DNA of 64,000 nucleotides from positions 2,204 through 66,203 of the IMG/VR virus record IMGVR_UViG_3300008110_000042. One strand, 5' to 3'. The stretch's first letter is position 1. The number at the start of each line of letters is the position of its first letter. This document shows, piece after piece, positions 3,512 through 63,126 of the stretch. The stretch is from a virus (lineage: Duplodnaviria > Caudoviricetes). The position numbers were made by a program, and so were the translations under genes. A model generated the notes under the pieces. It did not search any database. It saw only the letters and a list, made by a program, of their open reading frames with translations, and was not told the origin of the DNA.

Positions 3512-3584
3512 TGGGTCGGGAGAGACTTGAACTCTCAACCAATTGATTAAAAGTCAACTGCTCTACCTATTGAGCTACCAACCC
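3512..3584 (-). tRNA. tRNA-Lys (UUU)
   Basis: GGGTTGG acceptor, TAGCTCAATAGGTAGAGC D-arm, anticodon arm GTTGA-CT-TTT-AA-TCAAT, T-loop GTTCAAG. Confidence 0.95.
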
Positions 3585-3587
3585 TAA

Positions 3588-3660
3588 TAGCACTGGTGGG
3601 AGTCGAACCCACACTTTATTGATTTTGAGTCAACTGTCTCTGCCTTTGGACTACAGTGCC
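3588..3660 (-). tRNA. tRNA-Leu (CAA) with short variable loop
   Basis: GGCACTG/CAGTGCT acceptor, anticodon arm GTTGA-CT-CAA-AA-TCAAT, T-loop GTTCGAC. Confidence 0.9.
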
Positions 3661-3744
3661 ATATAGATTCTATGTACCTTGGATGGGTCAAAGCCATCTG
3701 TATACATAGAATCCGTAATAAAAATGTACCAGTATTTCTTACAA

Positions 3745-3818
3745 CATCCCTGACAGGGATCGAACCTGTAGCCTATGACTTAGAAGGTCATTGCTCTATC
3801 CAGTTGAGCTACAGGGAT
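3745..3818 (-). tRNA. tRNA-Arg (UCU)
   Basis: ATCCCTG/CAGGGAT acceptor, anticodon arm ATGAC-CT-TCT-AA-GTCAT, GTTCGAT. Confidence 0.95.
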
Positions 3819-3823
3819 ATACA

Positions 3824-3899
3824 TGGAAGGGGCGGGAGTTGCACCCACATATTCACGCTTATAAGGCATGCGCTCTATCTACTTTTCAGCCACCCTTCC
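3824..3899 (-). tRNA. tRNA-Ile (UAU) with atypical T-loop
   Basis: GGAAGGG/CCCTTCC acceptor, anticodon arm CATGC-CT-TAT-AA-GCGTG, T-loop reads GTGCAAC. Confidence 0.85.
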
Positions 3900-5249: not shown

Positions 5250-5398
5250 TTAGTCTCCTGTAGTACTGTATCAGTAGCCCCAACCATTCGGCATGCAGCC
5301 GTAAGTGCTAGCGTTGGAGTTTCACCAGCACAGATTGGTTCCCATACGGGGTAATCATAGGTTAGAATCTGGGCCAACCATATATGACTGTCGTTCAT
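5246..5398 (-). CDS. hypothetical protein
   Basis: 3' part of the track ORF, starting at MNDSH. Confidence 0.45.
   Translation of the reverse strand: MNDSHIWLAQILTYDYPVWEPICAGETPTLALTAACRMVGATDTVLQETK
5271..5292 (-). promoter_or_regulatory. candidate phage RNAP promoter, copy 1
   Basis: GCCGAATGGTTGGGGCTACTGA; one of four co-oriented copies of a 22-bp motif. Confidence 0.7.
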
Positions 5399-7452: not shown

Positions 7453-7501
7453 AATCCCTAGCCTTGTCGAAACAAGACACAGCCGAAGCCTATTCGGGAT
7501 T
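7453..7501 (-). other. small intergenic RNA structure with two UUCG-capped hairpins
   Basis: AATCCC...GGGATT closing stem encloses GGC-TTCG-GCT and CTTGT-TTCG-ACAAG. Confidence 0.5.
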
Positions 7502-7520
7502 TACCAAGGTGGACAAAAGA

Positions 7521-7718
7521 TTAGGTAGTAACTTCAACAACAGAGCAATCAATGGCATCAAACCAATCACCATTGATACGACAAACATTCATCTTATGCT
7601 TTGCCATACCAATCACATGCTCTCTTTCGCTTTCCCGTTGCGTCATTGTTTCCACAGTAACAGAAACAGAAACACCACAACAGGTATTACATGCCCAAGT
7701 TACCTTGAAGGTACGCAT
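7521..7718 (-). CDS. hypothetical protein
   Basis: ORF track; AGGAG RBS. Confidence 0.6.
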   Translation of the reverse strand: MRTFKVTWACNTCCGVSVSVTVETMTQRESEREHVIGMAKHKMNVCRINGDWFDAIDCSVVEVTT

Positions 7719-7732
7719 TTATTTCTCCTAGA

Positions 7733-8002
7733 TCAAGTACCGTACACAGAGACAGTCTGAACCCGTGCCATATAAGTAGCAACAGGTTGAATGTAATCAT
7801 CCGTAGTAACAATCACTACAAAGTCACTATGCCTTGCGTGTTCAATGTGAATGTGGAAGTTACCACCATCCGAATAGAAGTCACGCATGAGGATATAACT
7901 AATGGCCTCCACAATATCAGTATCATCCTTCTTATTCTCACCAAGGATGCACAGATTAAAGGGATTCTTACCATTCAAATCAGAGAGAGTAATGACTCGC
8001 AT
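7733..8002 (-). CDS. hypothetical protein
   Basis: ORF track; AGGAG RBS. Confidence 0.65.
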   Translation of the reverse strand: MRVITLSDLNGKNPFNLCILGENKKDDTDIVEAISYILMRDFYSDGGNFHIHIEHARHSDFVVIVTTDDYIQPVATYMARVQTVSVYGT

Positions 8003-8014
8003 TGTTATCTCCTA

Positions 8015-8107
8015 TTAAAGATTCTTATTCTCTTCAGCACACCAAAGAAGAACATACACACCAAAGATTCCAAGCAAAGCCACACCAATCAAAAGAAGTG
8101 TAGACAT
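8015..8107 (-). CDS. 30-aa single-pass membrane peptide
   Basis: Manual translation MSTLLLIGVALLGIFGVYVLLWCAEENKNL*. Confidence 0.5.
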   Translation of the reverse strand: MSTLLLIGVALLGIFGVYVLLWCAEENKNL

Positions 8108-8108
8108 G

Positions 8109-8357
8109 TCAAACCTTTCCCGGCATAGCCGGAGTGCTCATTCCTTCAAGATCCTTGCGGAGATTCTTGTTCTGTTCCATACAATCTTCTAGATCTTGAG
8201 CAAAGTAATTCATTGTCTGAAACATACACTCAAGAAGTCCGTGCTTATCTTCAGGAAGGGATTCCTTCAAACGAGAGTAGAAGATTTCCTGACAACCAAT
8301 GATCGACATAACAGTACGATCCTTAAAGTTAGATGAATGTCTAATTGCGATTGCCAT
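8109..8357 (-). CDS. hypothetical protein
   Basis: ORF track; AAAGGT RBS. Confidence 0.6.
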   Translation of the reverse strand: MAIAIRHSSNFKDRTVMSIIGCQEIFYSRLKESLPEDKHGLLECMFQTMNYFAQDLEDCMEQNKNLRKDLEGMSTPAMPGKV

Positions 8358-8372
8358 TGTATCATACCTTTC

Positions 8373-8654
8373 TTAGTTAGATTGGAGTTTCATAACTGCA
8401 CCCGAATCACCACGGGTAAGATGGCAAACCTTCACTTCCCGCTGCCTAACATAGACACCGGAGAGAGAACCACTGGCATAGAAGAACAAAGCATCTTCTC
8501 GCCATTCATTGTGCCAACCAACACAATCATCCTCACCAAAGAAGTCTTCATTCTTCAGCAAAGAAACAAGATGTGCTGGCGTAAAGGGAACGAAAGAAAC
8601 ACAAAGAACTTTGTAATCTTCCGAACCATCAAGACGAAACTCAACAAGTTGCAT
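8373..8654 (-). CDS. hypothetical protein
   Basis: ORF track; AAAGGT RBS. Confidence 0.6.
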   Translation of the reverse strand: MQLVEFRLDGSEDYKVLCVSFVPFTPAHLVSLLKNEDFFGEDDCVGWHNEWREDALFFYASGSLSGVYVRQREVKVCHLTRGDSGAVMKLQSN

Positions 8655-8844
8655 TGTCTTATACCTTTCTCGGCATTGCCGGATAGAGCATGTGGTTTAT
8701 GTCTATAGTTATTCCTTACGGAATAGTTGGAGTCCTCACACAAGATCCAACATCACAAGGTTTACCACAAACCCTAGTTACTTCCACAAACCCAAGGCAC
8801 ACAAAGAGGGTGCTACTTGTTGCACGGATAGTAACTATTCGACT

Positions 8845-9233
8845 GAAAGATATACCATAGGTTTCCCTACGATATACCGCTATGATAACACCGACAGGTT
8901 ACATAGTTAGCCTGTCTGCAAGTCCTATATAAACCATCAACACTAGGGACTAATCGTGTCGTGGGAAAGATATACCATAGGTTTCCCTATGATATATCAA
9001 CAGGCTTATGATTCAAATGCTAGTGACTACCTGTGGCGTATAGCAAGTATGTGCAATGTAACGCCCTGCACACTAGACGGTAGATTCGAGAGTCATTTAT
9101 TATAGAGTAGGATAAAGCGGTACTTACCATAAGAGATGCCTTTAGTGCATGTTATGGCAACACATAGCCATCCTACCCAGATTGTGTAAACTCTCAATCC
9201 AAAGGTATACCATAGGCTTCCCTAGGGTATACC
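8845..9233 (-). repeat. three copies of a ~33-nt hairpin repeat (about 8845-8878, 8965-8998, 9200-9233)
   Basis: Minus strand: G(G/A)TATA(T/C)C(G/A/C)TAGG-GAA(A/G)-CCTATGGTATA(T/C)C-TTT. Confidence 0.85.
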
Positions 9234-9239
9234 GAATAA

Positions 9240-9518
9240 TCAGTACCGACCACGAGCCATGCGATCCAAGTTAGGCATATGCCCATGAGTATCACTATGG
9301 CGTTCCTGCCACCTTCCAGACCGTTCTCGCGTAGACCATGTAGGAACATAGTCACGCATCCTGCGAACATCCTCAATCGTAGCATGAATACCACGATGTC
9401 GGTGAATGAACACCAAAGCATCAGATACTGATACTTTAGCAAACTTGGCAAGCCTAGGGGCAAGCGTAGCCGCATCGTTCACCGAACGGACATTCGCCAG
9501 ACAAACCGCTAGATTCAT
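9240..9518 (-). CDS. early hypothetical protein
   Basis: Start moved to MNLAV, 6 nt after GGAGGT; GC-rich codon usage. Confidence 0.6.
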   Translation of the reverse strand: MNLAVCLANVRSVNDAATLAPRLAKFAKVSVSDALVFIHRHRGIHATIEDVRRMRDYVPTWSTRERSGRWQERHSDTHGHMPNLDRMARGRY

Positions 9519-9533
9519 AGCCATACCTCCGTT

Positions 9534-9584
9534 GGGTATTCCATCGGATACCCTAGACCATCTAGGGTACCCGAAGGAATACCC
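9534..9584 (-). promoter_or_regulatory. long intergenic hairpin, candidate RNase III site
   Basis: ~24-bp stem with one G.U and one T-T on the minus strand, directly before an RBS, as with T7 early RNase III sites. Confidence 0.55.
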
Positions 9585-9609
9585 CGCGCCGTAGCACGGG
9601 GTAATCCAG

Positions 9610-9924
9610 TTAGCGACCGTCGAGCAAAGCATCCAACTTACCCTGCGCCGACCGCTTATTCACGACCTTGCCGATGTACATCGTACCGACAGCCTCCCAC
9701 ATGAGGCGCTTCGTTTCCTTATCCATGTGGGGAACCGAATCCATGACGATGTAGCAAGCGCACCGAACCTTGTTGCGGTAGTGCTTGTGATCATGGAAAC
9801 ATTCCATGCCGTACTTCACAACATCTGCGAACATATCCGGGCGAACTGCGCCGGAATTCCGCGTCTTATCAATGGCTTCCTTCACGGCGCCCCGGAGCAT
9901 CGTACCATTCGTAGTAGACATCAT
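9610..9924 (-). CDS. probable first early protein (hypothetical)
   Basis: Start moved to MMSTT after GAGGA. Confidence 0.65.
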   Translation of the reverse strand: MMSTTNGTMLRGAVKEAIDKTRNSGAVRPDMFADVVKYGMECFHDHKHYRNKVRCACYIVMDSVPHMDKETKRLMWEAVGTMYIGKVVNKRSAQGKLDALLDGR

Positions 9925-9960
9925 GTAATCCTCGCTAGATTGCGTACCGATACCCAACGC

Positions 9961-10014
9961 GGGTATCGGCTAGGATACACTAGGTTATCCCTAGTGTACC
10001 CTAGCCGATATCCC
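9961..10014 (-). promoter_or_regulatory. long hairpin upstream of the first early gene, candidate RNase III site
   Basis: ~24-bp stem GGGATATCGGCTAGGGTACACTAGG / CCTAGTGTATCCTAGCCGATACCC. Confidence 0.55.
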
Positions 10015-10129
10015 CTACGAAAGAACGCAGGGGATACCAGCCACGCGAATCAATCGCGGGATTATCCGGGCGAATATTGAGGAGGCGTGCGCCTTATCGG
10101 ATGTAGGCTACCCTTGAGGGTACTTTCCC

Positions 10130-10397
10130 GCCGTCTCCACGCATGGTGCTACCCATGAACAGAGCGGAACCTAGTCCATTTCCGTGACCCCATACTCATA
10201 CCTAGGCTAGTGAGCGTTGACAACGCAGACCTAGGTACCCCTTTGGGTACACCGTAGACTCACCGTTATACTCCGGGAGAGTAGCGTCTACGAGACTTTC
10301 ATACTAGACCGAGTGACAGCCTAGAGCGGATCGGTAGACTCCGCTATACACCGATGATCGCCAGACCTTACCGCTCTAAATACTGCGGGGAGGCGAC
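10130..10397 (-). ncRNA. candidate ~270-nt structured non-coding RNA
   Basis: 14-bp terminal helix, at least 6 internal hairpins, no ORF in the track, weak sigma70-like promoter just upstream. Confidence 0.55.
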
Positions 10398-10401
10398 CAC
10401 T

Positions 10402-10430
10402 ACACTACCGAACGCCGGAGCCGGATGGAA
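10402..10430 (-). promoter_or_regulatory. possible host sigma70-type early promoter
   Basis: TTCCAT-17 nt-TAGTGT; the predicted start coincides with the 5' end of the structured RNA; weak consensus. Confidence 0.3.
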
Positions 10431-10449
10431 TGCTAAAGCATCCCAGGGT

Positions 10450-10940
10450 TTGCGTCCGATAACATCGTGGGGGCGTTCCTAGATTATCGGACGATGCCTA
10501 CAGAGGTTATCGGACACGGGCTAGCAAGTCCGATAACTCTGGCCGGGGGTGACGGGGGGCGCGCAAGGGGGGATCAGGGGGGATACCCCTTCGCTAATTT
10601 TTGACCCCTAAGTCGATTTCTTACGGGAGCTGTGGTCCCTGCCTTGTTTCTAAGGGGGCTAGGATGCCTCAGGATTGATTATCTGATTGAGGTCCACCCT
10701 GCGGTCCCCTTGGGGTCCGGGGCCATCCCTCCGGTCAACTGGAGGGAAATCGACAAGGGATAAAACCGGGGGGTTAAACCCCGGAGTGCTTGTTCCTATT
10801 GGGTTATTATTGTTGTTGTAATTAACAAGGGATATACCTAGGTTAACCTAGGGGTCTTAGCTAAGACTATACACAACAATAATTAAAACTATAGGGGTTA
10901 ACAGCTAAGGGATAACCTAAGGTTATACTATGGTATATCT
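10450..10940. other. probable genome-end / terminal-repeat / packaging region
   Basis: Non-coding, between the last late gene and the first early gene; G-tracts followed by AATTTTT; perfect palindromes CCTAGGTTAACCTAGG and GTCTTAGCTAAGAC; promoter copy at its edge. Confidence 0.55.
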
Positions 10941-10962
10941 TCATTAGCCCCAACTATTCGGA
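10941..10962 (-). promoter_or_regulatory. candidate phage RNAP promoter, copy 2 (phiOR-like position)
   Basis: TCCGAATAGTTGGGGCTAATGA, just after the last late terminator. Confidence 0.7.
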
Positions 10963-10974
10963 ATACATGTCGAT

Positions 10975-11016
10975 AAAACAAATGGGGCTACCTAGGTTTC
11001 CCTAGGTAGCCCCCAT
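10975..11016 (-). terminator. intrinsic terminator after the giant gene
   Basis: GGGGCTACCTAGG-GAAA-CCTAGGTAGCCCC followed by ATTTGTTTT. Confidence 0.75.
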
Positions 11017-11019
11017 AGA

Positions 11020-14000
11020 TTACTCTAACAATTTGCCTAATTCTTCTGATACACCTCTCTGGTCGTAACCCATAGTCTTTTGTTTACCTAAGGCTTTTTC
11101 TGCTTGAGCTGTCTCCATCACATAGTTGCGTGGAGCTGGCTGATTAACATCCAGAGATATAGGACGGAACATAGTTCCGGCTTTCTTCTGGTATGGGTAA
11201 GGTTCTCTTTGAACCATATCCAAGTATTGTTGAATAGCATTCATTTCCTTAAATACCTGAGCATCTTCCAATACTCGTACTGGAATTGCTACTGGACTAC
11301 GATTAACTAGGGAGGTAGGGCCAAACAAGTTACTGGCTTCCTTAACAGCGTTTATTGAAAAGGGATCTTCAATAAGTCGCTGAGCACTTCGGAAGTCAGA
11401 CTCTAGTGTATTCATTCCTGCTCCAGCACCAGCTGGTAGGAAAGGTACACCATAGTACTTATAAGTACCACCTGTTAGACCAGCTACAGTGCTTACACCG
11501 GATTCAAGGAATCCGTTGTATAGACCAAGGAATGGAACTCTGGTTAATCCACGAAGAACATACTGGCTTGGTTGTTTATCAAGTTCTTCCATTATATCTT
11601 CTGTTTCACGACCAGCTAACCATTCTTTGAACAAGCCTACAATTGTATCCATAGCGGCATATAAGAATATACCACCAGCTAAATACTTAAGTGTGCTTCG
11701 TCCACCGTAATCAAGAATAACATTGTCCTGATAGGACTGTACCCAAGAAGTAAGAGCATACCACATTCTACCTAGGGCTGACTTAGAATCAAGAGAAGTC
11801 ATCTTGTTAAGTCCACCCAATTCAGATGTAGCTGTCTTTATAATTAGGTCTTCAACCATGAAGGCATAAGATGAAATAGCTGATTCCATTACATCCATAT
11901 CAATACCTTCTACTGGGTTGTTTCTAAGATCTTCATGGATATCCATTAGATCTAGAATGTTGACTCGGCCATCTCTATGGTTGGCTTTTTCCATTGCCCA
12001 CTTAAGATGTCGAATCTGTTCTTTAGTTGTCAAGCCATACTTTAAGAACAAGGCAGCTTCGTTTGCATCACCAAACTTTGCTGTATGTCTTGCAATACCA
12101 GCAAACTCCTTCCACAACTTGGCTTCAGCTTTGGCATCAGTAGCCGCAGCTTTCTTTAACTCAGCCAATTGGGAAGCAGTTGTAGTCTCAGTCAAGGCAT
12201 CAAATAAAGTCTCAACTCTACCCTTGCTAATATCCCTCCAGATCATTCTCTGGATTCGTTGCTTAGCTAGAGCGCGTGTACCATTTGTAATTGCCTGTAG
12301 AGAACCAATACTTTGCATCCATTTACCAGCTTCTTCCAAAGTTCTGGTTCCTTTTTCCAAAGCACCTACACCATTCTTTACATTGATTATAGTGTCGTTT
12401 ACACGAGTTCCAAATCTTGAATCAGATTTGAATGCACCATATCCAATCTCTCCCATATATCTATTAGCTAGATCTGTACGGAAGCTTTCAAGAATAAAAG
12501 TCATGTCACCAATATCAGACTCCAATAGCTTTCGCTTTGAAGCACGATAATCAGCTAGGACATAACGCATAGCCTTAATAATGTTTTTTGGTATTGTATA
12601 TAACTCAGGACTTTGCTTAGCCAACTCAGTCATGGTTTCAGTGAAAGCTGAAATACCATAACCAGCGGAGAACTTAAAGCGGATTGCTGCCAATCCAATT
12701 CTAGCTGAGTGTCCTGTCTCTGACTTTAGATATGGCAAGGTATCAGCATTAAACTGATACTCTTCATACAATCTATTAAGACCTTCTTCCAAACTATTCT
12801 TTGCTGTTCGTAGTTCAGCTTCTGACCAGTCCTGATCCTTTGACAGATTATCAAAGCTATCATAAGTTTTCTTACGAACATAATTAAATACATCTAGAAT
12901 AGTAATACCTGTCTTACCTAACATTCGGTCAAGTTCTCTCTGGAATGCTAGCTCAAAGTATCTACCCTTTAGGAAATAGAAGTAAGCCTCTGCAAGATTA
13001 GTTCTAAGGATAGCCTTAGTCTCGGGAGTACTAAACATCTCTTCTGGGGTTAATCCCTTGATTGGTAATATAGTCTTACCTTCTGGATCTAACTTAAAGA
13101 AAGGTTGGTTATAAATAGAGTTAAAGTCTTTAGTGCTGTTATAGGGATAACTCTTAGTTTTAAACTTAAGCATCTCTTCCATCTCAACACGAACTAGATT
13201 TCTACCATCTAGTTTCTTTCGCCACTTCTCTATGTACATCGCAGTGTCTCCTTGGATAGCTGCTATGTACTTGGTCTTATCATGTGGAGCAAGATCTGTA
13301 ACTCTTTCTGGAATACGATAAACAGAATATCTGTCATCAAATTCCAATACAAAGTATTTCTCTGGATTACTCTTTCTAAGGAGTTTTAGAATATCAGATT
13401 TCTTTCCAGAGATTCCAGACTTAGTGATATCGCTCTCATGTAACTTTTGTAAAGTATCTAAACTAAACATATTAGCTGCTTCTGAATAAGTGATGGTTCT
13501 ATCAGGAGCAAATATATTTAATGTCTGGTCTTTCTCGTTGTATTCAACATCGAGCCAGCCCAAGACAATCAATGTATTGATGTCTAGTTTATCGTCCTTT
13601 AACTTTCTATTTGTGCGAACTTCTACTAGTTTATCCAGTAGATTACTACGAGCAGCCCTGTCTCTCATTATAGATTCAAGACCTTCGTGATCAACTTGCG
13701 TTGGTGCAAAGACATCAGGAGATATTGGATTACCATCTGCATCTACAGTTAACAAACGACCTGTGTTTGTTTCTAGATCCAGAATGTTTTTGTTTGCCAA
13801 TCTAGCAGCTTTTAATAATAGAGATAGTTGTTTTGTTATTGGCTCAGCATACAATGCTGGAATACCAAGAGCAACTATATCTGCTTTATTAGGCTGTTTG
13901 TTTGTAAACAAAGTTTCATAAGTATATATATCAAGTTGTGCTTTTTGATCATTAGTCATGCGTGGCATGATTGTATTGATTTTAGCATACTCTTTAAATA

Positions 14001-17000
14001 TACGGGTAATCAATCTACCTTCTTCACCTCTGAGTTGCATTGCTGTCTTAAAGGCAGTCTTTCCAGCACCTACCAAATGTCCTGTTTGAGTCTTACGATC
14101 ATCAAAGAAACGAGACACAAACGAAAGTAGTGGAGCAACACTTCGCAGAGTATCACCTTGTCGTGATCCATTCTGTGTTGCATTCACACTCTTGTTCATT
14201 AAGTTTTCCCACCATGTTCGACTATCTCTTTGGTTTCCACCAAAGATTGCTCCAACAAGATTGTTAACTCTTAGTAAACGAGAAGTACCACTCTCTACAT
14301 TATTGATTGCATTCTCAATAACTTTTTCATTTGGTAACTCAGGCTCGGGTGCTGTTGGTTCTGGTGGAATCTCAGCTTCTTTAATATCTTTAATAACAGC
14401 ATCTGTTGATGGAGGACCGGGAATCTTTGCGTCTATTCCGGCTTCATCAATCAAGGATTTAACCTTTTTTGTTTTGCCGTTTAAACGATAATTACCTGCT
14501 TCATCTACTTTAGTAAATACAATATCTTCAGGCAATACAGGAATTACAAATTCTGGTTTGCCTTCAATTTGAATTTCTTTTGCTGCTTTATCTAAGAGCT
14601 GACGATAGGTAAGTGGTTTCTTTCCTGCTGGTCCTTCAGTTACTTTTACTCGTAATGAATCAGACACATACAATCTATCAACCGCTTGCCAGAACTTTGT
14701 CAGTATATCTTCACCAAGCACACGCTTATTTGCATCAGCAATAAACTGATTTACATTTACATAGTGTGACCAAAGCATTTCAAACATTGGGGTGACAGTC
14801 TCTGAGCCATCTGGTTCAACCTTTGATTCCCAATATTTCTTTAGGAACTTTCGGAGGAATCCAGAATCCATTCCAGAAACTCTTAGCAACTCAATGTCTT
14901 CATTAAACTTGCGTTCAATCTTTTCTGCTTTAGTTGTTTCAACAACATCAGTTGGAATTTCTTTGACAGTTGCAACTATCTTCTCAATAGTTGGTAGTCT
15001 AGTTTCTCCAGTTGGTACTGTTGTTGTTTTAGATTTTGGTTTTCTTGGTACTCTAATTTTTTTAGTAGCAACAGGTAAACCTTCTTTTTTCTGTTTAGGT
15101 GCATCTATTCTTGGTCTGTTAATAACATTTATAACAGGGGTATTATCAGCAGCCTTTGCAATCTCTAACATCTTAGGTTGTTCAGGCACAGCATCAATTA
15201 CAGTTGCTCCTAACACTGGCAGATCTGAAGTTGTTAAAGGAATAACAGAACCATCTTTAAATACTAAAGCATCAGAACCAATTCTACTTGCTGTCTTTTT
15301 TACACTTTCAAGTTTTACTGGATCTGCTGAAAGTATATCAGCTGACTCAACATCCATCTTCAATGGACGCTTTGGAGTAAAGCCGATAGCTTCTTTCTTA
15401 CCAGAGTTTGTTCCATTGAGAATAGCATCAACTTGTTTAGCAGGACGAATAGTTTGTTCTGGCTTTTTACCAGTAATAGTTTCTTCTGTTGCTCTAAATA
15501 GTGATGCTTCTGTTTCTGGAATAGTAGGAGTTGCTAGTGACTCTGGATTCTTATTCTTTAAGCTTTCAGCTAAAGCTTGAGTCTGTCGTATACGCGAACC
15601 AGCTTCAACAATTGTTCTTTGTTTCGTAACTGGTTGAACTCTTGTAGTATTTTTAATTTCCTTATTTGCTTTTTCTGCATTCTTTCTTGATTCTTCAATA
15701 GCTTTCTTTTTATCATTATCTAGTTCACGAAGCTTTTGTCCAGCTTCATTTAGAGTTGATTCAAGTAGTTTATGCTTAGCAACTTCTTCAGTAATAAAAA
15801 GTTTTAGGGTGTTTAGTCTAGCAGTAATAGCAGCTCTCTTAATAGCTTTTCCAAACAGCTTTTCAGATTGTGCTGCTACTTTAGAGTCTGTACCTAAAGC
15901 AAGTTTTGCTTTTAATAAAGATACAGCTTCAGGCGTTAACCAACTACCATTAGATGCTTCATGCCACTCTAAAGCTTTTTGTAAATAGACATCACTAAGT
16001 TCTGCTTTACCTAGTTTCTTTTTCTCATACAAATTAGCTAGTCTATTAGTTTGTACTGGCTTTTCATTTGTGCCTTCATCAGAATCAACATTGAGTCTTC
16101 CAGCTCTTTGGTCTTTTCTTTCTTGATCTTTAGTTGCATTCTTACCAGTGGTTGTTAAATAAGCCATTAGATTATTAATAGTAGCAATATCACCATTAGC
16201 AACTGCTAGTTCTAAAGATGCTGTTCTCTTTTCACTTACCTGAATGACAGTATAAGCGTCTATTAAATCTGGACGAAGAGTTATAACTTTAATCAAAGCT
16301 TCTTCTAAGTTATCAGTAGTCACTACTTCTGAGAGTTCACTAGCAGCTTTTTCTTCTGACTTTAACTTTGTTGCTGAAGTAGACTCAGCTGCTTTCTTTC
16401 TTTTTGACTTTGTTGTAGGTTTGTTTATTACCCACTTACCAGATCCTTTGGTTTGCTTTACTTGATCGGTATTAATCATATCATATAAAGTACCAATGAA
16501 TTCTTCAGGTGATTTACTACCAGTCAAAATTTTATTTACAATAGCTTCATCTATATTAGCAGCCGCTACTTTAACTAATAGACCTATGTCAACTTTGGTA
16601 TCTTTTAACATTACAATATTAGCTAAAGCATCTTCTTTATTTTGCCATCTTACAATATCTTCAGCTGGAGTATTATCTCCATCTAGTTTATTGAATAATG
16701 GTAGACCGTCTTTTAGAATAGCCATTCGCATTTCATCTGTAATAGGTAGATAAGGCTGTTTACCTATGCCATTAACTTCTTGTAGTTTTACAGAGGTTTT
16801 ATATTTCTTGCCAATTTTGTTAGCAACTTTTACCATTATGTTTTCATAGAACTCTAGATAACCAGTAGCACCAAACAACATAGTCCCACCTTCTTCAGAT
16901 GGTTTTATAACAAAAGGTTCAAATACATTATCACGACTACTATCTGTAATCTCTTTAGCTTTTGCTTTACCTACATAATTATGCAGTTCATTTGCAGAAA

Positions 17001-20000
17001 TATCATCGAAGTTTCGTTTATTACCAGATTTTTCATCAATAGTTATATCGTAAGAACCAAGATAATTTTTAGTTACAAAAATTTCAGAAACATTATCAAT
17101 TATAATTTTGTTATAACGATCAGCTTGTTGTTGTCCTGTAGTCCAAGCAACACCATCAAAGCCATGCTCTACAGCATACTTTAACATGCGTTTGAATATC
17201 AAACCACCCCATGCTTCTGATGATTTAAAAGGAGCTAAAGGTAATAGATCTGGATCTATAAGATTAAGACCTTCATTTAATGCTGTTAAGTCATCTAACT
17301 CTCTTGCTAAAGTACTTTCATATGTGAATAAAAAGTCTAATTCCTCAATATGCTGTTTATATGGTTTTACATTAGGTAAAACATCAGATGGCAATTTAGA
17401 CATTAATTGCTGCTTTAAAAAGTATTTAACTAAAACAAGAGCATCTGCTAAGTCTTTAGGTTCTTTTATTAGTTTTAATTCTAAATTCATTCTACTTATT
17501 ATATTGTCAACACTACTACTACGATAGCCGTATGCAAACGAAGAAGAATATTTAAATAAAGGATGTTGACTTATACTAATAATGTTATTGCCCATACTAT
17601 AAACAATATCTTTTGCTTTTGTCATTCCAGTAAGATCAAAATTACCTTCTGGAAATATAGCACCTACTCCAACTTCTTGTGAGCCATCAGCTATATCATA
17701 TAAAATATGTGCAGTAGAATCATTAAATGCATAGTTATTGTCCATAAGATCAAAAGTTTTATTACGAATAACAATATAAACTGGTTGTGTTATATCAACT
17801 CCATACGCATCAATAGATTGTTTAGATTTCCACGCTTTTTTAATTTCATCAGCATTAAAAGAAAGCTCAAACAATATATTATACTTATCTAGTTGTTGTG
17901 TTTTAGTTGAAAATAATTTATCAGGTAGTTCAGTATTAGAAAGTTTTACTTCATTATCCATAATTTTTTTTATATCAGGAACAATTGTATCTAATCTTTC
18001 ACTAACTTCTTTTATTCTCTGTTCGTTGTTAACAAACTCTTCAGGTTTTTCTGGTGTATCTTTAGGACGATAACCTTTTTCGTTTCCTTTTTGATGCCAA
18101 TCGCTTTGAAATTCTTCACCAAATAAAACTTTAAAGTTTTCTGGAGTATATCTAGTATTAGCACGACCATGTACAACAACATTTGTTACTGGAGTGTTAT
18201 TACCATGCCAGCCTCCTTCCCAATGTGTCATACCACTTTGTAATTCAATATCAGGAAATCTAATTAAGAATTCTCTTTGATCTTCACCATTAGGTAAAAC
18301 TAAAGTTTCGTGTTGATATTTATCCCAGATAGTATGACCACCGGGTAGTGGCTTTTCTATTGTTTCTCTATAAGGTGCAAATAAATCTAAGATAGCACTC
18401 TGAATATTTTCTGGTAATTTATCTAATTCGGTTTTAAGATATTCTTCAACTTGATTAAAAACAGTACTATAAACCTGAGCGCGTAATTCTTTATTTCTGA
18501 AATAAGGATATAATTCAGGTTGTTCTCTCATTAATCTTTCTTTAGGTAAATTATTGCCCCATAAAAGTGATTCATTAGCTTTAATTACATTTTCAGCAGT
18601 TACTTTACCATATTTAGATTCAGGTATTACTTCTTCAGGATAGAAAGTTGTAGCTTGCTCTTTACTAGTTACAAATTCAATATTATCTTTACTTGAATTA
18701 ATTAGATTACCATCTTTTAATTTTACATATTCCATACCACCAAAGACTTCTGACTTTTCAATATTAGCTGCAATAAACTCTTTAATGGCTGCAATAAGAA
18801 GCGGCCAATTATCTTTATCTGTTATTTCTGCTTGTTTTTCTAAAGCGTATTCTCCTAGCTTTTTAAAAAACAAAGGATCTCTAAGTGTTTTAGAAACAGG
18901 AATAACGCTAGAAGGAAATACAATTGTTTTGTAAGTTTTACCGCCGCTACTAGTAACTGAATCAGTTATTGGAAGTGTATCTGTTTTAATAAAATCGTGT
19001 ACTAAAACTCTTGAAACATTTTTCGTAGAATGAACTATTGTTGTTTCCGAGCCTTTAATAACTTCTTCTATTTTAACAGGTTTAATAATAGAAATAAGTG
19101 TATTTAAATCTACTTTAGCATCTTCAGGTAATGCATCCATATATTCTTTTAGACCAGTCCATTCAATCTCTTCTTGTTTAATACTACCCTTAACCAACAA
19201 AGCAGCAAGTTGTTGCTTTGTCATTGTTCTTTGTGGATTAGTCTTTATTGTTTCAACAAGACTAGAATAGAATGTAGACAACATCAATTCTTTTTGCGGT
19301 GTTGTGTTAAACGAAATATCAAATAGTTTATTTGAAGGATCATCAAAGCCTAAAATAAAAGCGGCTCTTCCAAGAAGACCAGTAACACTAGCCATTTCAC
19401 TTAAACCATTTTTCTCTAATCTATCTCTAACCAAATCTAAAATAGAATTATTAAAGTATTCATTTGAGCTAACAGTCTGTAGCAAGTTTGCTCTGTCTTC
19501 AACAGACATAAGATCTTTATTAGTAAAAGAAACAAAATCATACTTAGGATCTAATACAGGTTTTGCTTTACTACCAAAGACAGTCTTATCAAATAGAGGA
19601 TCTGAAGCAACTTCAAACAAACGCTTACCTGTAGTAACTAAGTAAGCATAGTCATACTTACCTTCAGGAATCTTTTCTTTCTTTGCATATTGTTCAAACA
19701 CATCAAGGATCTTAAGTGAGCGTTCTTCATAAGTAGCTGGAATAGCTCCCATGTTTCTTCGCTCAGCGCTGATTGAGAAGAACTGTTCTTTAAAGTATTT
19801 TAGTCTTTCTTCGGTAGTCATGTTAATAAACTTATCGTAGTCTTTAGCTGACTCAAAGAAATACATTACTTTATAAAGAAGAGAGTTAGTCTGTGTCTTT
19901 TTATATTCAGAGTAAGCTTCAACAAACATATTAAAATGTTTGCCTATTCTACCACCAGAATCAATTGCAGATAGCCCTTGGCTTTTAACTATAGTCATAG

Positions 20001-23000
20001 CAGCTATCATAGCTGGATCAAAGTATTGACCATTCATCAAGAATTCATACTCACCTCTAGTAAGCATGTACTTGTCATTGATTCCTTTTTTATGGATTAT
20101 TGTAGCAAACTCACGCGCATTAGTAGCAAACTTAGTATAGCCACCAGTTAACTGTGCAGATCTTGCAAAGACTTCATTTAACTCATGGACAGATAATGTT
20201 TGATCTGCCATTTGTTTATTGATGTTTGTAATTTCTTTTACAAGAGCACTAGCAGTATCATAAAACTCAGAACTATTTAAAATCCTAGTTGCGACTAGAA
20301 CTGCTTTCTGAATATCTAATAAAATAGATTTAGTCCAAGAGACATCTATTGGATTCATCTGTTGTATTATTGTTTCAGCTTCTGTTAACAATACTTTTGA
20401 AAAAGTCTGTACAAAAAATTCTTCAGCATTTATTAAATGATAAGTACTTAAGAATCTTTCGTTTAACATAGGATCATCTAGCTTTAAGGTAGATTTAAAA
20501 CCCTTGTCTTGAACAAGAGCCATACCAAAAGATGAAACAGCTTTGTTGTATAACTTAAGATTTGATAAATAGATATTACCTGTAGCTCTTGATTTAAAAT
20601 AAGCGTGACCTATCTCATGTAGGATAGATCTAATGCGCTGATTTGATCTTGCTTTTGGAGATAGGAAATAACCAAAGTTTGCATTAAGTGTAATCTTCTT
20701 CTTATCATATTCCCATTTAGCAACAGTAGAAGCATCGCTTACTATTGACTTTGTTCCAGTAACTTCATCTGTCTTTACTGTTGTCATTTTTTCTACACCA
20801 AACTCAAGGAATGGAACATCACTAAAGTTTAGATGAACAACAGAAGCAAATAAAAGAATACGATCTTCGCTTGTAAGCATGGAGTTAGTTACAAGACTGT
20901 CAACATAGTCTGCAAACTTTTTAGCGGAGTCTTTGCTACCTGAAACAATAGAAACAAAAGCATTTGATACATCTGCTTTGTTATCATTTAGATATTTAAT
21001 CTTAGCTACTCTATCTTTATCAACCTTTGCAATATTAATTGCGTTTCTAATTTGCATTGATAGAGCGTTAAAAATAGTTTCTTTGCGTTCCTTAGCTCCA
21101 GCAATATCTCTTACGGCATTCTCAGTTGTTTCACTGATTTCACCAGTAAGCTTTGCTTCTAAAATAGCAGCATCAACAACATCAGAAGCTTCTGTTGGAA
21201 TACCAGCTTTTACAGTCGCTTCTCTTTCTGGAGAGGTTGCAGCAGATTCAATAGCTTCAAGTAACTTATGAGCTGCTTCTTCTGCCGCTACTTTTCTTTC
21301 AGCTGCTGGCTTTGCTGTGTCTCTTGCTTCCTTAATTAGATCAGGAATATTACGCTGAGATCTTTTTTTTAATCCTTCTAGTTCTGCCTTAAGTGCCTTA
21401 TAACGATCTGAACCTAGACGCTTACGAAGTCTAAAAAACTCTCCCTTGCGTTGTCTTTCTAGTTCTTCATAGACACGCTCTCGTTCTTTTGGTAGACCAA
21501 CAGCTTCTGTTTCTACCTTCTTGGCATCTTCTAGAAACTTCTTACCAGCAAACAAGACACGCATTTTATCAGATACTGACATTTGATCAAAGACTTCACC
21601 AGACTCAATAAATCGCTCAGAGCCTTCATTATTAGTACGACGAGCAAACTCAGTCATTACTTCATGTATATTTCTAAAGACACGATTAGGCGCTGCTCTA
21701 GCAATATATTCTGCTGTAGTTTCATTCTCATATCGGCGTGTACCTACATCTTCTGGTGTTGATCTAGCTACTTCAGGAGAATTCAAAGCTTCTCTTGTTT
21801 CAACACGATCAACTCTTGCTTCAGTTTCGGTTGCCATTTTTTCTGCAGTAATATCAGTATTTTCAATTACTGCTTCTTTAGCTAGCTTTTCTGGAACTGG
21901 AGCATCAATGATTGGCTTTTCAGGCTTCTTCATAAGACCAGAAATATTATCAATTGTATTACCTAGTGGAGTTCCTTCAAGGGTAAGACGCTTATCCAAT
22001 GAGTTTCTAAGCCCACGACCAGCATCAATCTCTACGCCTTGCACTCTGTTTCTAACAGCACCAACACCACTGCGTAACAATCCACCACCAAGACCAAACA
22101 CACCACCAAACGCCAAGCCTTCTTCTAATGCTGTTGTAGCAATCAAAGAAGCATTATAATCAGTGAGTGCGTATGGGTTGGCGTATAGAGTTGCAGCACC
22201 AAAGGCAATTTCTCTTTGCTGTCTAGCATACTCAGCTAAGCCACCTTGTACTGCTCCGAATGTAAACGCAGCAGCAGCTCCACGCAGCAAACCAAAGTTA
22301 CTTACATAACTAGGCATAATGCCAAGTGGTAGTTTATAAAGTGTTTCAGTTGTGTAAGCAGTTGCCCTTAAAGCCTTACCAGCAACAGATGCAGAATCAT
22401 AGACACGCTTTAAGCGCATAAACAAAGATGTCCCACCTAAAGCAGTGGCTGTTGCTTCTGCTGCCATAACACCACCAGCTAAACCAGCGGCGGTTCCTAC
22501 TCCCGGAACAAGAGATCCAATGGCTGTTGTAATACCAGCTAATGCCAACTCAGCACCAATACTTGGAATAGTGTCAGGGCTATTAATCATACCTCCAACA
22601 AGACCATCTCGGAATAAACGAACATAGTCTAGTGTTGTTGGTTTGTATGTTCCAATTCTTTTTTGAATGTCAGTAACATTTAGCTGATGCATGATACGAA
22701 TCATTGCATGGTCAGCATTTGGAGAATCACTTACAAAAGAAGAATCAATACCATTTTCTAATAGATATTGATTTACAATTGGATTTGAAAACTTACTTGA
22801 AAACCAATTATTTGGTTCAAAGTTTGGGTCTTCTCTTGCCATAATCTTTTCAATATCTTTTGTATCTCCAGCTAATTCTGTATCAGAGAATGAACTAGTA
22901 ATTCCAAACAAATCTTGAGCGACAAATTGATCGAACCAGTTAAAGCCTAGCTTTTCATCAGCTTTGCTTTGTGCTTCTGCATACAAAAGCTTTGTTGAAA

Positions 23001-52881: not shown

Positions 52882-53641
52882 TAGTATCTCCTAGGGTTTG
52901 TTCTTCAGTAGCCCCAACTATTGGGCAATATAGTTTTACCTGTTTAGTAGCCTTGTCGTACTCACCATCCCGTAGGATGCGGACAGATCGGGCCATAGCC
53001 AAACAGTAATCATAATCATATTTACCGCCATCTGCGGTCTTAGCTTGGTCATAAGCTGCCAGTACAGCAGCCGACCAGTTCCGGGGGTGGACATACTTAA
53101 GCCACTTCTCAGCCTTAGCTGGCCCCCACTTCCAGATACCGGGGATATTATCGGTCGTATCCCCGGTAATCCACTGCTTGTGGAAGTTATAGTCAGCAGT
53201 GTAATCATCTACCATATCTGGTGTATGTTCCTTGTCAGGATTCCAGTGCCACCCCGGTACAGACTTGAGATCTTTATCAATGGTAACAGCTATCCCCTTA
53301 CCAGAAGAAGCCATAAGTCCCATAATATCATCAGCCTCTAGCCTTGGTACTGTCAGAATGTCATGCTCTTTGATAAGCTCAAGAGCGTAGTCCATGCAAT
53401 CTGGGGTCTGTTTACGCACATCACGATGTGCCTTATAGGGTTCCCAGAAGTCCCGTCTGTAGTTATCCTTGCGGCTACAAGACATGGCAATGTAGACCTT
53501 CTTCATTCCCATTGGTGTCCAAGCCTTAACATCATGGGATAGCCGTTCTTCTAGATACTCAACACCTTCTTGATCAGCCCAGAAAGCAGCACGGTAACAC
53601 AAGATATCTCCATCTAGAACAGCAACATCAGGTCTTTCCAT
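52871..53641 (-). CDS. 5'-3' exonuclease (gp6-like)
   Basis: LDGD, YKAHR, LEADD, DKDL and GDTTDNIPG. Confidence 0.92.
   Translation of the reverse strand: MERPDVAVLDGDILCYRAAFWADQEGVEYLEERLSHDVKAWTPMGMKKVYIAMSCSRKDNYRRDFWEPYKAHRDVRKQTPDCMDYALELIKEHDILTVPRLEADDIMGLMASSGKGIAVTIDKDLKSVPGWHWNPDKEHTPDMVDDYTADYNFHKQWITGDTTDNIPGIWKWGPAKAEKWLKYVHPRNWSAAVLAAYDQAKTADGGKYDYDYCLAMARSVRILRDGEYDKATKQVKLYCPIVGATEEQTLGDTNGY
52905..52926 (-). promoter_or_regulatory. candidate phage RNAP promoter, copy 3
   Basis: GCCCAATAGTTGGGGCTACTGA, in the 3' end of the exonuclease gene ahead of dut/nrdJ/structural genes. Confidence 0.7.
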
Positions 53642-61929: not shown

Positions 61930-61963
61930 AAAAAAGGAAAGGGGATTTCTCCCCTCTCCCTTT
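61930..61963 (-). terminator. intrinsic terminator-like hairpin after the resolvase
   Basis: GGGAGAGGGGA-GAAA-TCCCCTTTCCT followed by TTTTT. Confidence 0.6.
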
Positions 61964-62333
61964 AGTTAGATACTTCTAATGTGAAGTAACCATCTTCACC
62001 TTTATTAGCCCACTGTTTAGATACATAGAGTGATGTGATCTGAGAGTCATCCTTCCAGATCTTAGTATTCATTGTATCCAGAACAGCCTTAGCAAAGTTG
62101 TCTATGTCTGCCTTTGGCCATCCTCTTTCAGTAGACTTTGGTTGCTTTACATACAGTTCTATTGTTACTGATAGCTCACCCTCAAGGGCTTGCCAACTAG
62201 TACCAATAGTATCCCATACAATTTCAGAGGCTTTCTCTCTGAACTCTTTGTATGTGCCTGTATAGTATGCACCCCATTTACCAACCCGTGGTCTTGAAGC
62301 AGCCACGGGATTGATATTAAACTTCCAGTTCAC
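61962..62333 (-). CDS. rusA: RusA-like Holliday junction resolvase
   Basis: RPR, DIDN..KAVLD and WKDDSQI. Confidence 0.88.
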   Translation of the reverse strand: MNWKFNINPVAASRPRVGKWGAYYTGTYKEFREKASEIVWDTIGTSWQALEGELSVTIELYVKQPKSTERGWPKADIDNFAKAVLDTMNTKIWKDDSQITSLYVSKQWANKGEDGYFTLEVSN

Positions 62334-63104: not shown

Positions 63105-63126
63105 TCTGTAGCCCCAACCATAGGGC
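63105..63126 (-). promoter_or_regulatory. candidate phage RNAP promoter, copy 4
   Basis: GCCCTATGGTTGGGGCTACAGA; intergenic, ahead of the SSB/replication block. Confidence 0.7.

Follow-up and report, generated by a model that had tools for sequence, protein, structure and literature searches.

A length-fixed, GAAA-capped hairpin as putative punctuation of the early transcript in a clade of uncultured freshwater T7-like phages

Introduction

Phage early transcripts that are cut at hairpins and small RNAs that are encoded by phages both belong to already known kinds of biology. In bacteriophage T7, RNase III hairpins placed between the early genes, and between some late ones, leave a protective 3' stem-loop on each mRNA; these sites comprise ~20 base pairs (bp), about two helical turns, and usually consist of two stems around an internal loop. 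Here, we describe a stretch of 64,000 bases (hereafter the window; positions 2,204 to 66,203 of the IMG/VR record IMGVR_UViG_3300008110_000042) from a virus contig of 66,203 bases with a completeness rating of 98%, in which a 13-bp hairpin capped by GAAA or GAAG occurs three times in a non-coding gap between two early open reading frames (ORFs). An earlier reading of the letters alone (the original prediction) had described this gap as a polycistronic small-RNA cassette cut or protected at the repeats. No description of such a hairpin-punctuated array was found in the passages that a full-text search of the literature returned.

The hairpin resembles the T7 RNase III sites in lying on the sense strand between cistrons of a long early transcript (with the first copy 3-8 nucleotides (nt) after a stop codon in most arrays), with a common sequence from copy to copy, in a genome whose genes follow the T7 order, with a single-subunit RNA polymerase among them, and that carries a few further copies outside the early region. 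It differs from them in that a continuous 13-bp stem with a GNRA tetraloop stands in place of two helical turns around an internal loop, and in that copies also bracket non-coding modules. By analogy, the element would appear to work like the T7 sites without being classed as one of them. CRISPR arrays, the solitary repeat units of phages and ToxI-like repeats also share with the array a short hairpin-forming repeat in one orientation with intervening sequence; here, however, the spacing is uneven (120 and 235 nt), and we take the units between the repeats as conserved structured RNAs, not as spacers. The array has neither spacers of ~30-40 nt nor a repeat matching a host CRISPR repeat, with no true copy in the prokaryote genomes scanned, and its repeats are not arranged head to tail beside an endoribonuclease toxin: they lie 87-202 nt apart, the neighbouring ORFs are without family, and no toxin or cas gene was found beside the array among the early ORFs scanned. 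The boxB element of phage lambda has a 5-bp stem and a GNRA-like pentaloop and goes with an adjacent boxA and an N-type protein, whereas the stem described here is of 13 bp, the loop is of 4 nt, and an N-like family is absent among the early ORFs scanned.

Results

The three hairpins are present where the original prediction had placed them (Table 1) and occur far above chance: the 16-nt word of the 3' arm has seven matches at no more than three mismatches, against 0.84 expected, and none of 100 shuffled sequences reaches seven. The array hairpins are 30 nt long each and all in one orientation. The first to be transcribed, copy 3, starts 6 nt past the stop codon of the ORF at 9240-9524 and folds at -18.0 kcal/mol (z -4.39 against shuffles), and the last, copy 1, folds at -17.1 kcal/mol (z -6.32). 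Two further hairpins have the same build, which brings the long GAAA/GAAG hairpins of the window's genome to five, each of them on the sense strand; by chance, ~0.5 GNRA hairpin with a stem of 12 or more is expected per genome. One of the two, at 10984-11013, has its apical CCUAGG-GAAA-CCUAGG in common with the array hairpins; the other begins on the last base of the stop codon of the ORF at 61962-62333.

Table 1. Positions in the window of the hairpins, the modules between them and the genes of the surrounding genome (positions count from the first base of the window; aa, amino acids).
Feature	Position	Strand	Description
Hairpin copy 3, first transcribed	9204-9233	minus	13-bp stem with one C.U mismatch, GAAG loop, UUU at 9201-9203
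Hairpin copy 2	8969-8998	minus	13 bp, GAAA loop, UUU at 8966-8968
Hairpin copy 1, last transcribed	8849-8878	minus	13 bp including three G.U pairs, GAAA loop, UUU at 8846-8848
Same-build hairpin	10984-11013	minus	13 bp, GAAA loop, apical CCUAGG-GAAA-CCUAGG, G+C-rich, then AUUUGUUUU; directly after the 4154-aa ORF
Same-build hairpin	61933-61962	minus	13 bp, GAAA loop, then UUUUC; unrelated purine-rich stem; also in L060
Module A	9082-9200	minus	Rod-like structured RNA, ~120 nt: P1 (12 bp), 10/11-nt internal bubble, P2-P5
Module H	8999-9081	minus	~80 nt, two small conserved hairpins and conserved tail UUUGAAUCAUAAGCCUGU
Unit 1	8879-8965	minus	87-nt spacer, seen in this genome alone among the fetched loci
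Module C	8655-8845	minus	191-nt non-coding leader to the ORF at 8373-8654
Upstream flanking early ORF	9240-9524	minus	94 aa, no known family, protein conserved in relatives
Downstream flanking early ORF	8373-8654	minus	93 aa, no known family, protein conserved in relatives
Small early ORFs and four tRNA genes	tRNAs 3512-3899		First in minus-strand order
T7-type single-subunit RNA polymerase	extends past the left edge of the window	minus	823 aa, PF00940, E 8.9e-84
Primase/helicase, DNA polymerase, ribonucleotide reductase, portal, capsid, tail proteins, terminase		minus	Next in T7-like order
4154-aa ORF	11020-23484	minus	Last virion-protein position

Related contigs, ~20 in all, were identified in IMG/VR and the JGI metagenomes by two kinds of scan, one using the repeat word and the other the C-terminal end of the 4154-aa protein; some of them are probably duplicate records (e.g. 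two of 46,300 bases). Every one of these contigs has the hairpin, in one to four copies that lie on the early region's coding strand. From the loci, 37 distinct contexts of 50 nt were collected (11 or more of 13 positions paired, loop GARR, tail TTT); three rows were dropped (a low-complexity match in an unrelated locus, a purine-rich hairpin of another type and a misaligned variant) and one was replaced by the identical window copy, giving a final alignment of 34 rows that comprises the window and its relatives. In this alignment, 98.4% of 442 cells are paired, a percentage that is inflated by the preselection for pairs and tail, from which the covariation counts suffer less; nine of the 13 pairs have changed on both sides and one is invariant, 0 of 500 shuffles attain any of five measures, and a shift of the partner by 1-3 columns lowers the pairing to 24-60%. 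Because the 34 rows had been chosen for pairing, a second set, again less exposed to this bias, was anchored on the 3' arm alone and contained 20 distinct hairpins of the clade, whose non-Watson-Crick positions are 29 G.U, 0 A.C and 4 other. Hardly any variation is seen in the apical UAGG-GAAA-CCUA or in the 3' arm, whereas the 5' arm drifts via G.U pairs. The restriction of G.U pairs to the minus strand, which had been read in the window as a mark of selection on RNA, therefore holds clade-wide, and the count of 29 to 0 shows that the hairpin is selected as a single strand of sense polarity, most simply as RNA.

Among 42 instances of the hairpin, 17 follow an ORF of 40 aa or more by no more than 30 nt, the distance from the stop codon being 3-8 nt in most cases; where the locus includes an ORF upstream of the array, the hairpin behind that ORF is the first copy. 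Some relatives (L038 and L043; L numbers denote related loci) have a minimal layout, ORF-hairpin-leader-ORF, without an RNA unit, and additional copies are present 1.2-1.9 kb downstream in L046, L051, L060, L063 and L070, some of them directly behind ORFs. The proposal that the repeat is a signal specific to small RNAs has to be given up on these grounds, as it also follows protein-coding ORFs. Stems of unrelated sequence share one build (13 bp, GAAA, then U-rich): the second sub-clade has a counterpart of the hairpin at 10984-11013 with a different sequence and the same build, and variant array hairpins with quite different apical sequence (GACAUAUUAUGAG-GAAA and GAUAUGCUAUGGA-GAAA) are found at the same positions. 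Taken together, the position after stop codons, the downstream copies, the unrelated stems of one build and the five sense-strand hairpins suggest a general element of transcript punctuation; they point to a clade-wide intercistronic signal whose reader would be sensitive to stem length and loop.

Several other roles for the hairpin were considered and rejected. A scan of the hairpin word against one genome each of 185,579 prokaryote species gave seven matches, no true copy among them and all flanks unrelated, and host mimicry was dropped for want of a true copy in this set. Five of the seven matches pair at 7-9 of 13 positions and two at 11-12 of 13 by chance; the latter two lie inside a coding-like stretch also present in metagenome matches, whose downstream letters resemble what we take to be a GDP-mannose dehydratase-type gene. 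A reading of the UAUGG in the 3' arm as a GAAA tetraloop receptor was abandoned because the helix is fully paired. Just downstream of a promoter-like word at 10941-10962, the plus strand carries GAAGATATACCATAG(G/T) at 10927-10942, which is like the 5' arm of the hairpin and complements its 3' arm; it is found in all relatives covering the place and is without a partner arm in the window. The sequence GAAGAUAUACCAUAGG after the promoter-like motif is a perfect complement of the 3' arm plus tail. Pairing of this "anti-repeat" with the hairpin was nevertheless rejected: in L041, the word stays GAUAUACC and the hairpin arms read GGUAUACC, an A.C mismatch would result, and the GAAGAUAUACCAUAGG word and the hairpin arms therefore do not co-vary.

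Between the two flanking ORFs (8655-9239), there is no conserved ORF, in agreement with the original prediction, which had seen no convincing one; the best frame, 9130-9020 (36 aa), is missing its start codon in L035 and reads ATG-TAA in L057. The gap consists instead of hairpins (HP) and non-coding modules, which are combined differently among relatives. The window has the layout HP-A-H-HP-U1-HP-C (U1 being unit 1) and its closest relative, L065, HP-A-H-HP-C. Other relatives show HP-A-HP-leader (L035), HP-A-HP-leader-D (L055), HP-A-H-HP-leader (L051), HP-A-HP-(second, divergent A)-H-HP-leader (L046), HP-A-B-HP-(about 270 nt)-HP-C (L062) and HP-A-B-HP-C (L063), and the second sub-clade (L005, L012, L013 and L018) shows HP-B-HP-leader. 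Strain-variant DNA metagenome contigs have joints at 8133/8845, 8685/8964 and 8996/9083 and loose ends at 8846, 8882 and 8965, beside repeats, in agreement with the module shuffling among the assembled relatives; with flanks of <30 nt and a likeness threshold of 85, they give a weak hint that the repeats may be sites of module exchange. A search of the phage's own genome for antisense targets of the modules returned chance-level matches only, of 12-16 nt.

To judge from its covariation, module A is a real, new structured RNA family with no Rfam counterpart. It folds at -41.2 kcal/mol, with z -6.07 for the sense strand versus -1.85 for the antisense strand, and RNAalifold on nine distinct sequences gives 34 pairs in five stacked helices, of which 12 are compensatory; 97.4% of the cells in this alignment are paired, and 0 of 500 shuffles equal the number of covarying pairs. 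The inner stem of ~22 bp is broken by the conserved loops GGCUAUGNGUU and AAGUACCGCUUUA, the conserved single-stranded words are AAGUACCGCUUUA and AUAAAUGA, and the bubble has, on its 3' side, the sequence UAUAAUAAAUG in the window, where most relatives have UAUAAAUG. Against 30 sources (368,776 bases), a covariance model of module A gave 15 matches with E values of 1 or less, each on the hairpin-bearing strand of its locus. The homologues number nine distinct sequences plus one divergent copy, the second one of L046, which stood outside the model and scores 52 bits (E 5.5e-10) with compensatory changes of its own. No match to the model was found in eight loci of the second sub-clade, nor in L037, L040, L056, L038 and L043, and a scan of viral contigs with the 3'-end word of the module returned L035 and five unrelated matches only. 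Selection at the RNA level on the sense strand, inferred by the original prediction from the repeat, is borne out for the repeat and for this one of the intervening units, and the fold of module A is conserved in relatives, as is the hairpin. The prediction had drawn 9000-9199 as one multi-stem unit; its structure is real in part, but the segment is made of two modules, A and H, that are found apart in relatives, and among its stems, GGGTAGGAT/ATCCTACTC and CCATAA/TTATGG show compensatory changes in relatives, whereas CTAGTG/CACTAG is not retained there and RNAalifold favours different pairs. The Rfam check that it had called for gave four tRNAs only at gathering thresholds over the whole window, no match in 8650-9240 even at E up to 10, and noise only in 8300-11100 at that level.

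The remaining modules differ in how far they can be read as RNA. Module H is weakly supported as a structured RNA, with four compensatory pairs of 18 in seven sequences and a single-sequence z of +0.34, no better than shuffles. Module C (z -2.77) has 59 predicted pairs, one of them compensatory, and its covariation cannot be judged because the four copies are 91-96% identical. At its end stand a small hairpin (CCGGCAAUGCCG) and, after it, the Shine-Dalgarno sequence GAAAGG, a combination found ahead of many early genes in these phages. Within module C, at 8726-8838 on the minus strand, five UUGUG words stand within ~70 nt, several of them in small hairpins, and are nearly invariant in four relatives. 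Module B, which is found in relatives and not in the window (L012:9328-9481, minus strand; L018, L005, L061, L062 and L063), opens with a hairpin that covaries (CUAACAU/AUGUUAG versus CUUGUAU/AUACAAG) and whose loop, CCUCCUCA, resembles an anti-Shine-Dalgarno sequence; in three more helices, 4 of 30 pairs are compensatory.

The phage that carries the array is uncultured, T7-like and from fresh water, and it encodes an RNA polymerase of its own. Throughout the window, ORFs of at least 300 aa are all on the minus strand, in T7-like gene order. A 1415-aa ORF is without a family match, and the 4154-aa ORF has no Pfam or PHROG family over its full length and no polymerase family; the C-terminal 499 aa of the latter are found at 63-81% identity in six IMG/VR contigs. 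The closest named relatives of the portal protein are cultured podophages at no more than ~32% identity, and blastn of 8300-10100 against 50,697 phage records gave zero matches, so that the phage has no cultured relative; its DNA was found in freshwater and lake metagenomes. Among the early ORFs, a minus-strand ORF at 1475-2455 (326 aa) encodes a DUF932 protein (PF06067, E 5.5e-39; phrog_1221), and the ORF at 6669-6986 matches DUF7296.

The array lies ~1.7 kb downstream of the last late gene, past a terminator-like hairpin and a conserved promoter-like word. The 4154-aa ORF is followed in turn by the hairpin at 10984-11013, the word CCGAATAGTTGGGGCTA, ~1 kb of G+C-rich non-coding DNA, two small ORFs each with a long hairpin before it, and the array. 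The word CCGAATAGTTGGGGCTA occurs four times ahead of genes and is retained in relatives; in the form CC(G/C)AAT(A/G)GTTGGGGCTA, it stands on the minus strand at 5271-5292, 10941-10962, 52905-52926 and 63105-63126 and is kept syntenically in L040, L041 and L043. It is likely the promoter of the phage's T7-type polymerase, and one copy directly after the last late gene is reminiscent of the right-end promoter of T7. By analogy with T7, we infer that the array region is the start of the early region, at the genome end that would enter first. The ~1 kb of non-coding DNA before the two small ORFs has 52% G+C, compared with 40.5% for the genome; for the whole of 9240-11019, the first ~1.8 kb past the last late gene, the value is 52-53%, compared with 36% for the 4154-aa ORF. 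This segment contains runs such as CCCCGGACCCCAAGGGGACC, and the genome ends or a terminal repeat may lie here. The long hairpins before the two small ORFs (9534-9584 and 9961-10013, minus strand) have 24-nt arms that are 92% complementary and end a few bases before the Shine-Dalgarno sequence of the early ORF; the one at 9534-9584 is kept in L062 with compensatory changes (CCCUAGA/UCUAGGG to CUCUAGA/UCUAGAG).

Other kinds of promoter were also searched for around the array. Two weak sigma-70-like matches lie within it on the minus strand (9197-9170 and 9016-8989), and the five sigma-70-like sites of 7500-11100 are not above chance (6.0 +/- 2.5 in shuffles). Bacteroidetes-type promoter words (TTTG ... 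TAnnTTTG) at the hairpin were dropped, as their spacing of ~26 nt is too long for such promoters and the genes have strong Shine-Dalgarno sites. The 4154-aa ORF had brought to mind hairpin promoters of the N4 type with a virion RNA polymerase, an idea that was dropped because this ORF is without a polymerase family and a T7-type polymerase is present.

Discussion

Our results are best explained by a hairpin that divides the early transcript, marking or protecting presumed RNA ends between cistrons, with modules set between duplicated copies; we give this explanation a probability of roughly one half. The non-coding part of the early operon would be transcribed from the minus strand as one early RNA, and the layout, with every large ORF on that strand in T7-like order, fits the single polycistronic transcript that the original prediction had proposed. 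The hairpin would form in the sense RNA just after a cistron, where it may direct an endonuclease, as its target or guide, to cut within the U-rich linker, or serve as a 3' stem-loop that halts exonucleases; the long early RNA would thus be split into stable pieces, much as RNase III hairpins split that of T7. In this genome, the hairpin would have been duplicated, with non-coding modules between and after the copies; module A would probably be set free as a stable small RNA and bind some factor of the host or of the phage, and module C would form the long structured leader of the next gene.

Several observations weigh against this explanation. The near-invariant apical sequence and 3' arm suggest sequence-specific recognition, which a passive block to exonucleases would not need, and with 13 bp and no internal loop, the stem falls short of the T7 RNase III sites in length. 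RNase III would be better matched by the two long hairpins before early ORFs (9534-9584 and 9961-10013) than by those of 13 bp, and 0 of 10 early ORFs scanned against Pfam and PHROGs have an RNA-binding or nuclease family. The pairing of the 34-row alignment owes part of its height to the way in which the rows were chosen. For unit 1, where a three-way junction had been proposed at 8880-8962, the fold of the sense strand is no more stable than shuffles lead one to expect (z -0.65, with 46 of 200 shuffles at least as stable), and none of the fetched loci contains a homologue, the closest relative, L065, included; the junction is accordingly unsupported, and the unit is regarded as strain-specific filler or a very young insert. 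Finally, one metatranscriptome run (X20, Logan contigs) has a sole contig on 7800-11100, of 245 nt (10069-10313, minus strand), which falls within the G+C-rich non-coding leader and could be DNA carry-over, and such assembled contigs are uninformative on RNA ends or on the absence of transcripts.

The main rival takes the hairpins as leaky terminators of low strength or as pause sites, for the host or the phage T7-type polymerase; early transcription would be graded by them, and each module would receive a 3' end resembling that of a terminator. We consider this possible though on the whole unlikely. Like intrinsic terminators and the Tphi-type terminators of T7-like phages, the hairpins are stem-loops followed by U: UUU stands directly after every hairpin in 34 of 34 aligned rows (where it was a selection criterion), and the leader downstream is U-rich in relatives (UUUCCGUCUGAUUUCUUUCU). 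The hairpin at 10984-11013, which is terminator-like and was flagged in a terminator scan, has the same 13-bp GAAA build and the shared apical sequence. On the other hand, the same scan flags 0 of 3 array hairpins, which have an A+U-rich stem base and three U only in place of the G+C-rich stem and at least five U in eight of an intrinsic terminator, and the early genes downstream, including that for the RNA polymerase, require read-through, as no promoter-like site after the array is above chance.

A second alternative is that the hairpin is the binding site of a specific phage or host RNA-binding protein, be it an antiterminator, a translational regulator for which it would be the operator, or an endoribonuclease measuring 13 bp from the GAAA loop. 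We find this rather doubtful. The conserved apex and 3' arm beside a 5' arm that drifts through G.U would suit such a protein, as would a stem that stays at 13 bp even where its sequence is unrelated and an operator-like number of one to four copies per genome; yet the early ORFs scanned offer no candidate with a fitting family, and the GACAUAUUAUGAG-GAAA and GAUAUGCUAUGGA-GAAA variants occupy the same positions. It is very unlikely that the repeat acts as DNA, as a palindromic operator, a recombination site or a single-strand DNA hairpin, with an incidental RNA fold. The 13-bp inverted repeat in one to four copies near the presumed genome start, the modules of relatives shuffled at the repeats, and the strain-variant joints and loose ends beside them (8845/8846, 8964/8965 and 8996; weak, with flanks of <30 nt) speak for it. 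A double-strand palindrome, however, predicts G.T to equal A.C, and the count is 29 to 0 (which is compatible with a same-strand single-strand DNA hairpin); moreover, the sense-strand loop is always GAAA or GAAG, and the placement is exactly after stop codons. That the units encode small peptides overlooked in ORF calling is scarcely credible, given that the tblastn matches of the 34-36-aa minus-strand frames (9197-9093 and 9130-9020) in close relatives track nucleotide conservation and end at the boundary of module A in L062, L046, L055 and L063 (16-20 aa), that the start of frame 9130-9020 is lost in relatives as described above, and that the substitutions in stems are compensatory and without codon periodicity.

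A bolder extension would make the hairpin both a processing signal and a recombination joint of early small-RNA cassettes, each made of one structured RNA and one 13-bp GAAA hairpin and swapped at the repeat among related phages, whose products, made first after entry, would be decoys of host machinery: module A a mini 6S-like mimic that ties up host RNA polymerase, the CCUCCUCA loop of module B an anti-Shine-Dalgarno mimic and the UUGUG-rich module C a protein sponge. We regard this scenario as speculative and improbable. 6S RNA is an open-promoter mimic of ~180 nt that sequesters sigma-70 RNA polymerase, to whose holoenzyme it binds and for which it acts as template of a product RNA. By eye, module A shares with it a rod with a closing stem, a bubble of ~10 nt per side and a long irregular inner stem, and the 10/11-nt bubble is present and covaries; module A is shorter, however, at ~120 nt, and the 6S covariance models of Rfam have no match at E up to 10 over 8650-9240 or 8300-11100. 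According to passages of one study, truncated 6S-1 RNAs made of the central bubble and two short arms are still functional in vitro, cycling on RNA polymerase (PMC8876501). A 6S-like nature of module A may thus serve as a lead only.

From the point of view of phage biology, what is new is a length-fixed 13-bp, GAAA-capped and UUU-tailed hairpin as shared punctuation over a clade of uncultured freshwater T7-like phages, a hairpin that brackets interchangeable non-coding modules, and, in module A, an RNA family with solid covariation that is without a counterpart in Rfam. If the hairpin is a processing signal, it would provide a handle for finding phage small RNAs in metagenomes, by way of the sequence between the repeats, and module A, which would come from the DNA presumed to be first into the cell, is a candidate RNA-based factor of host takeover or counter-defence in uncultured phages.

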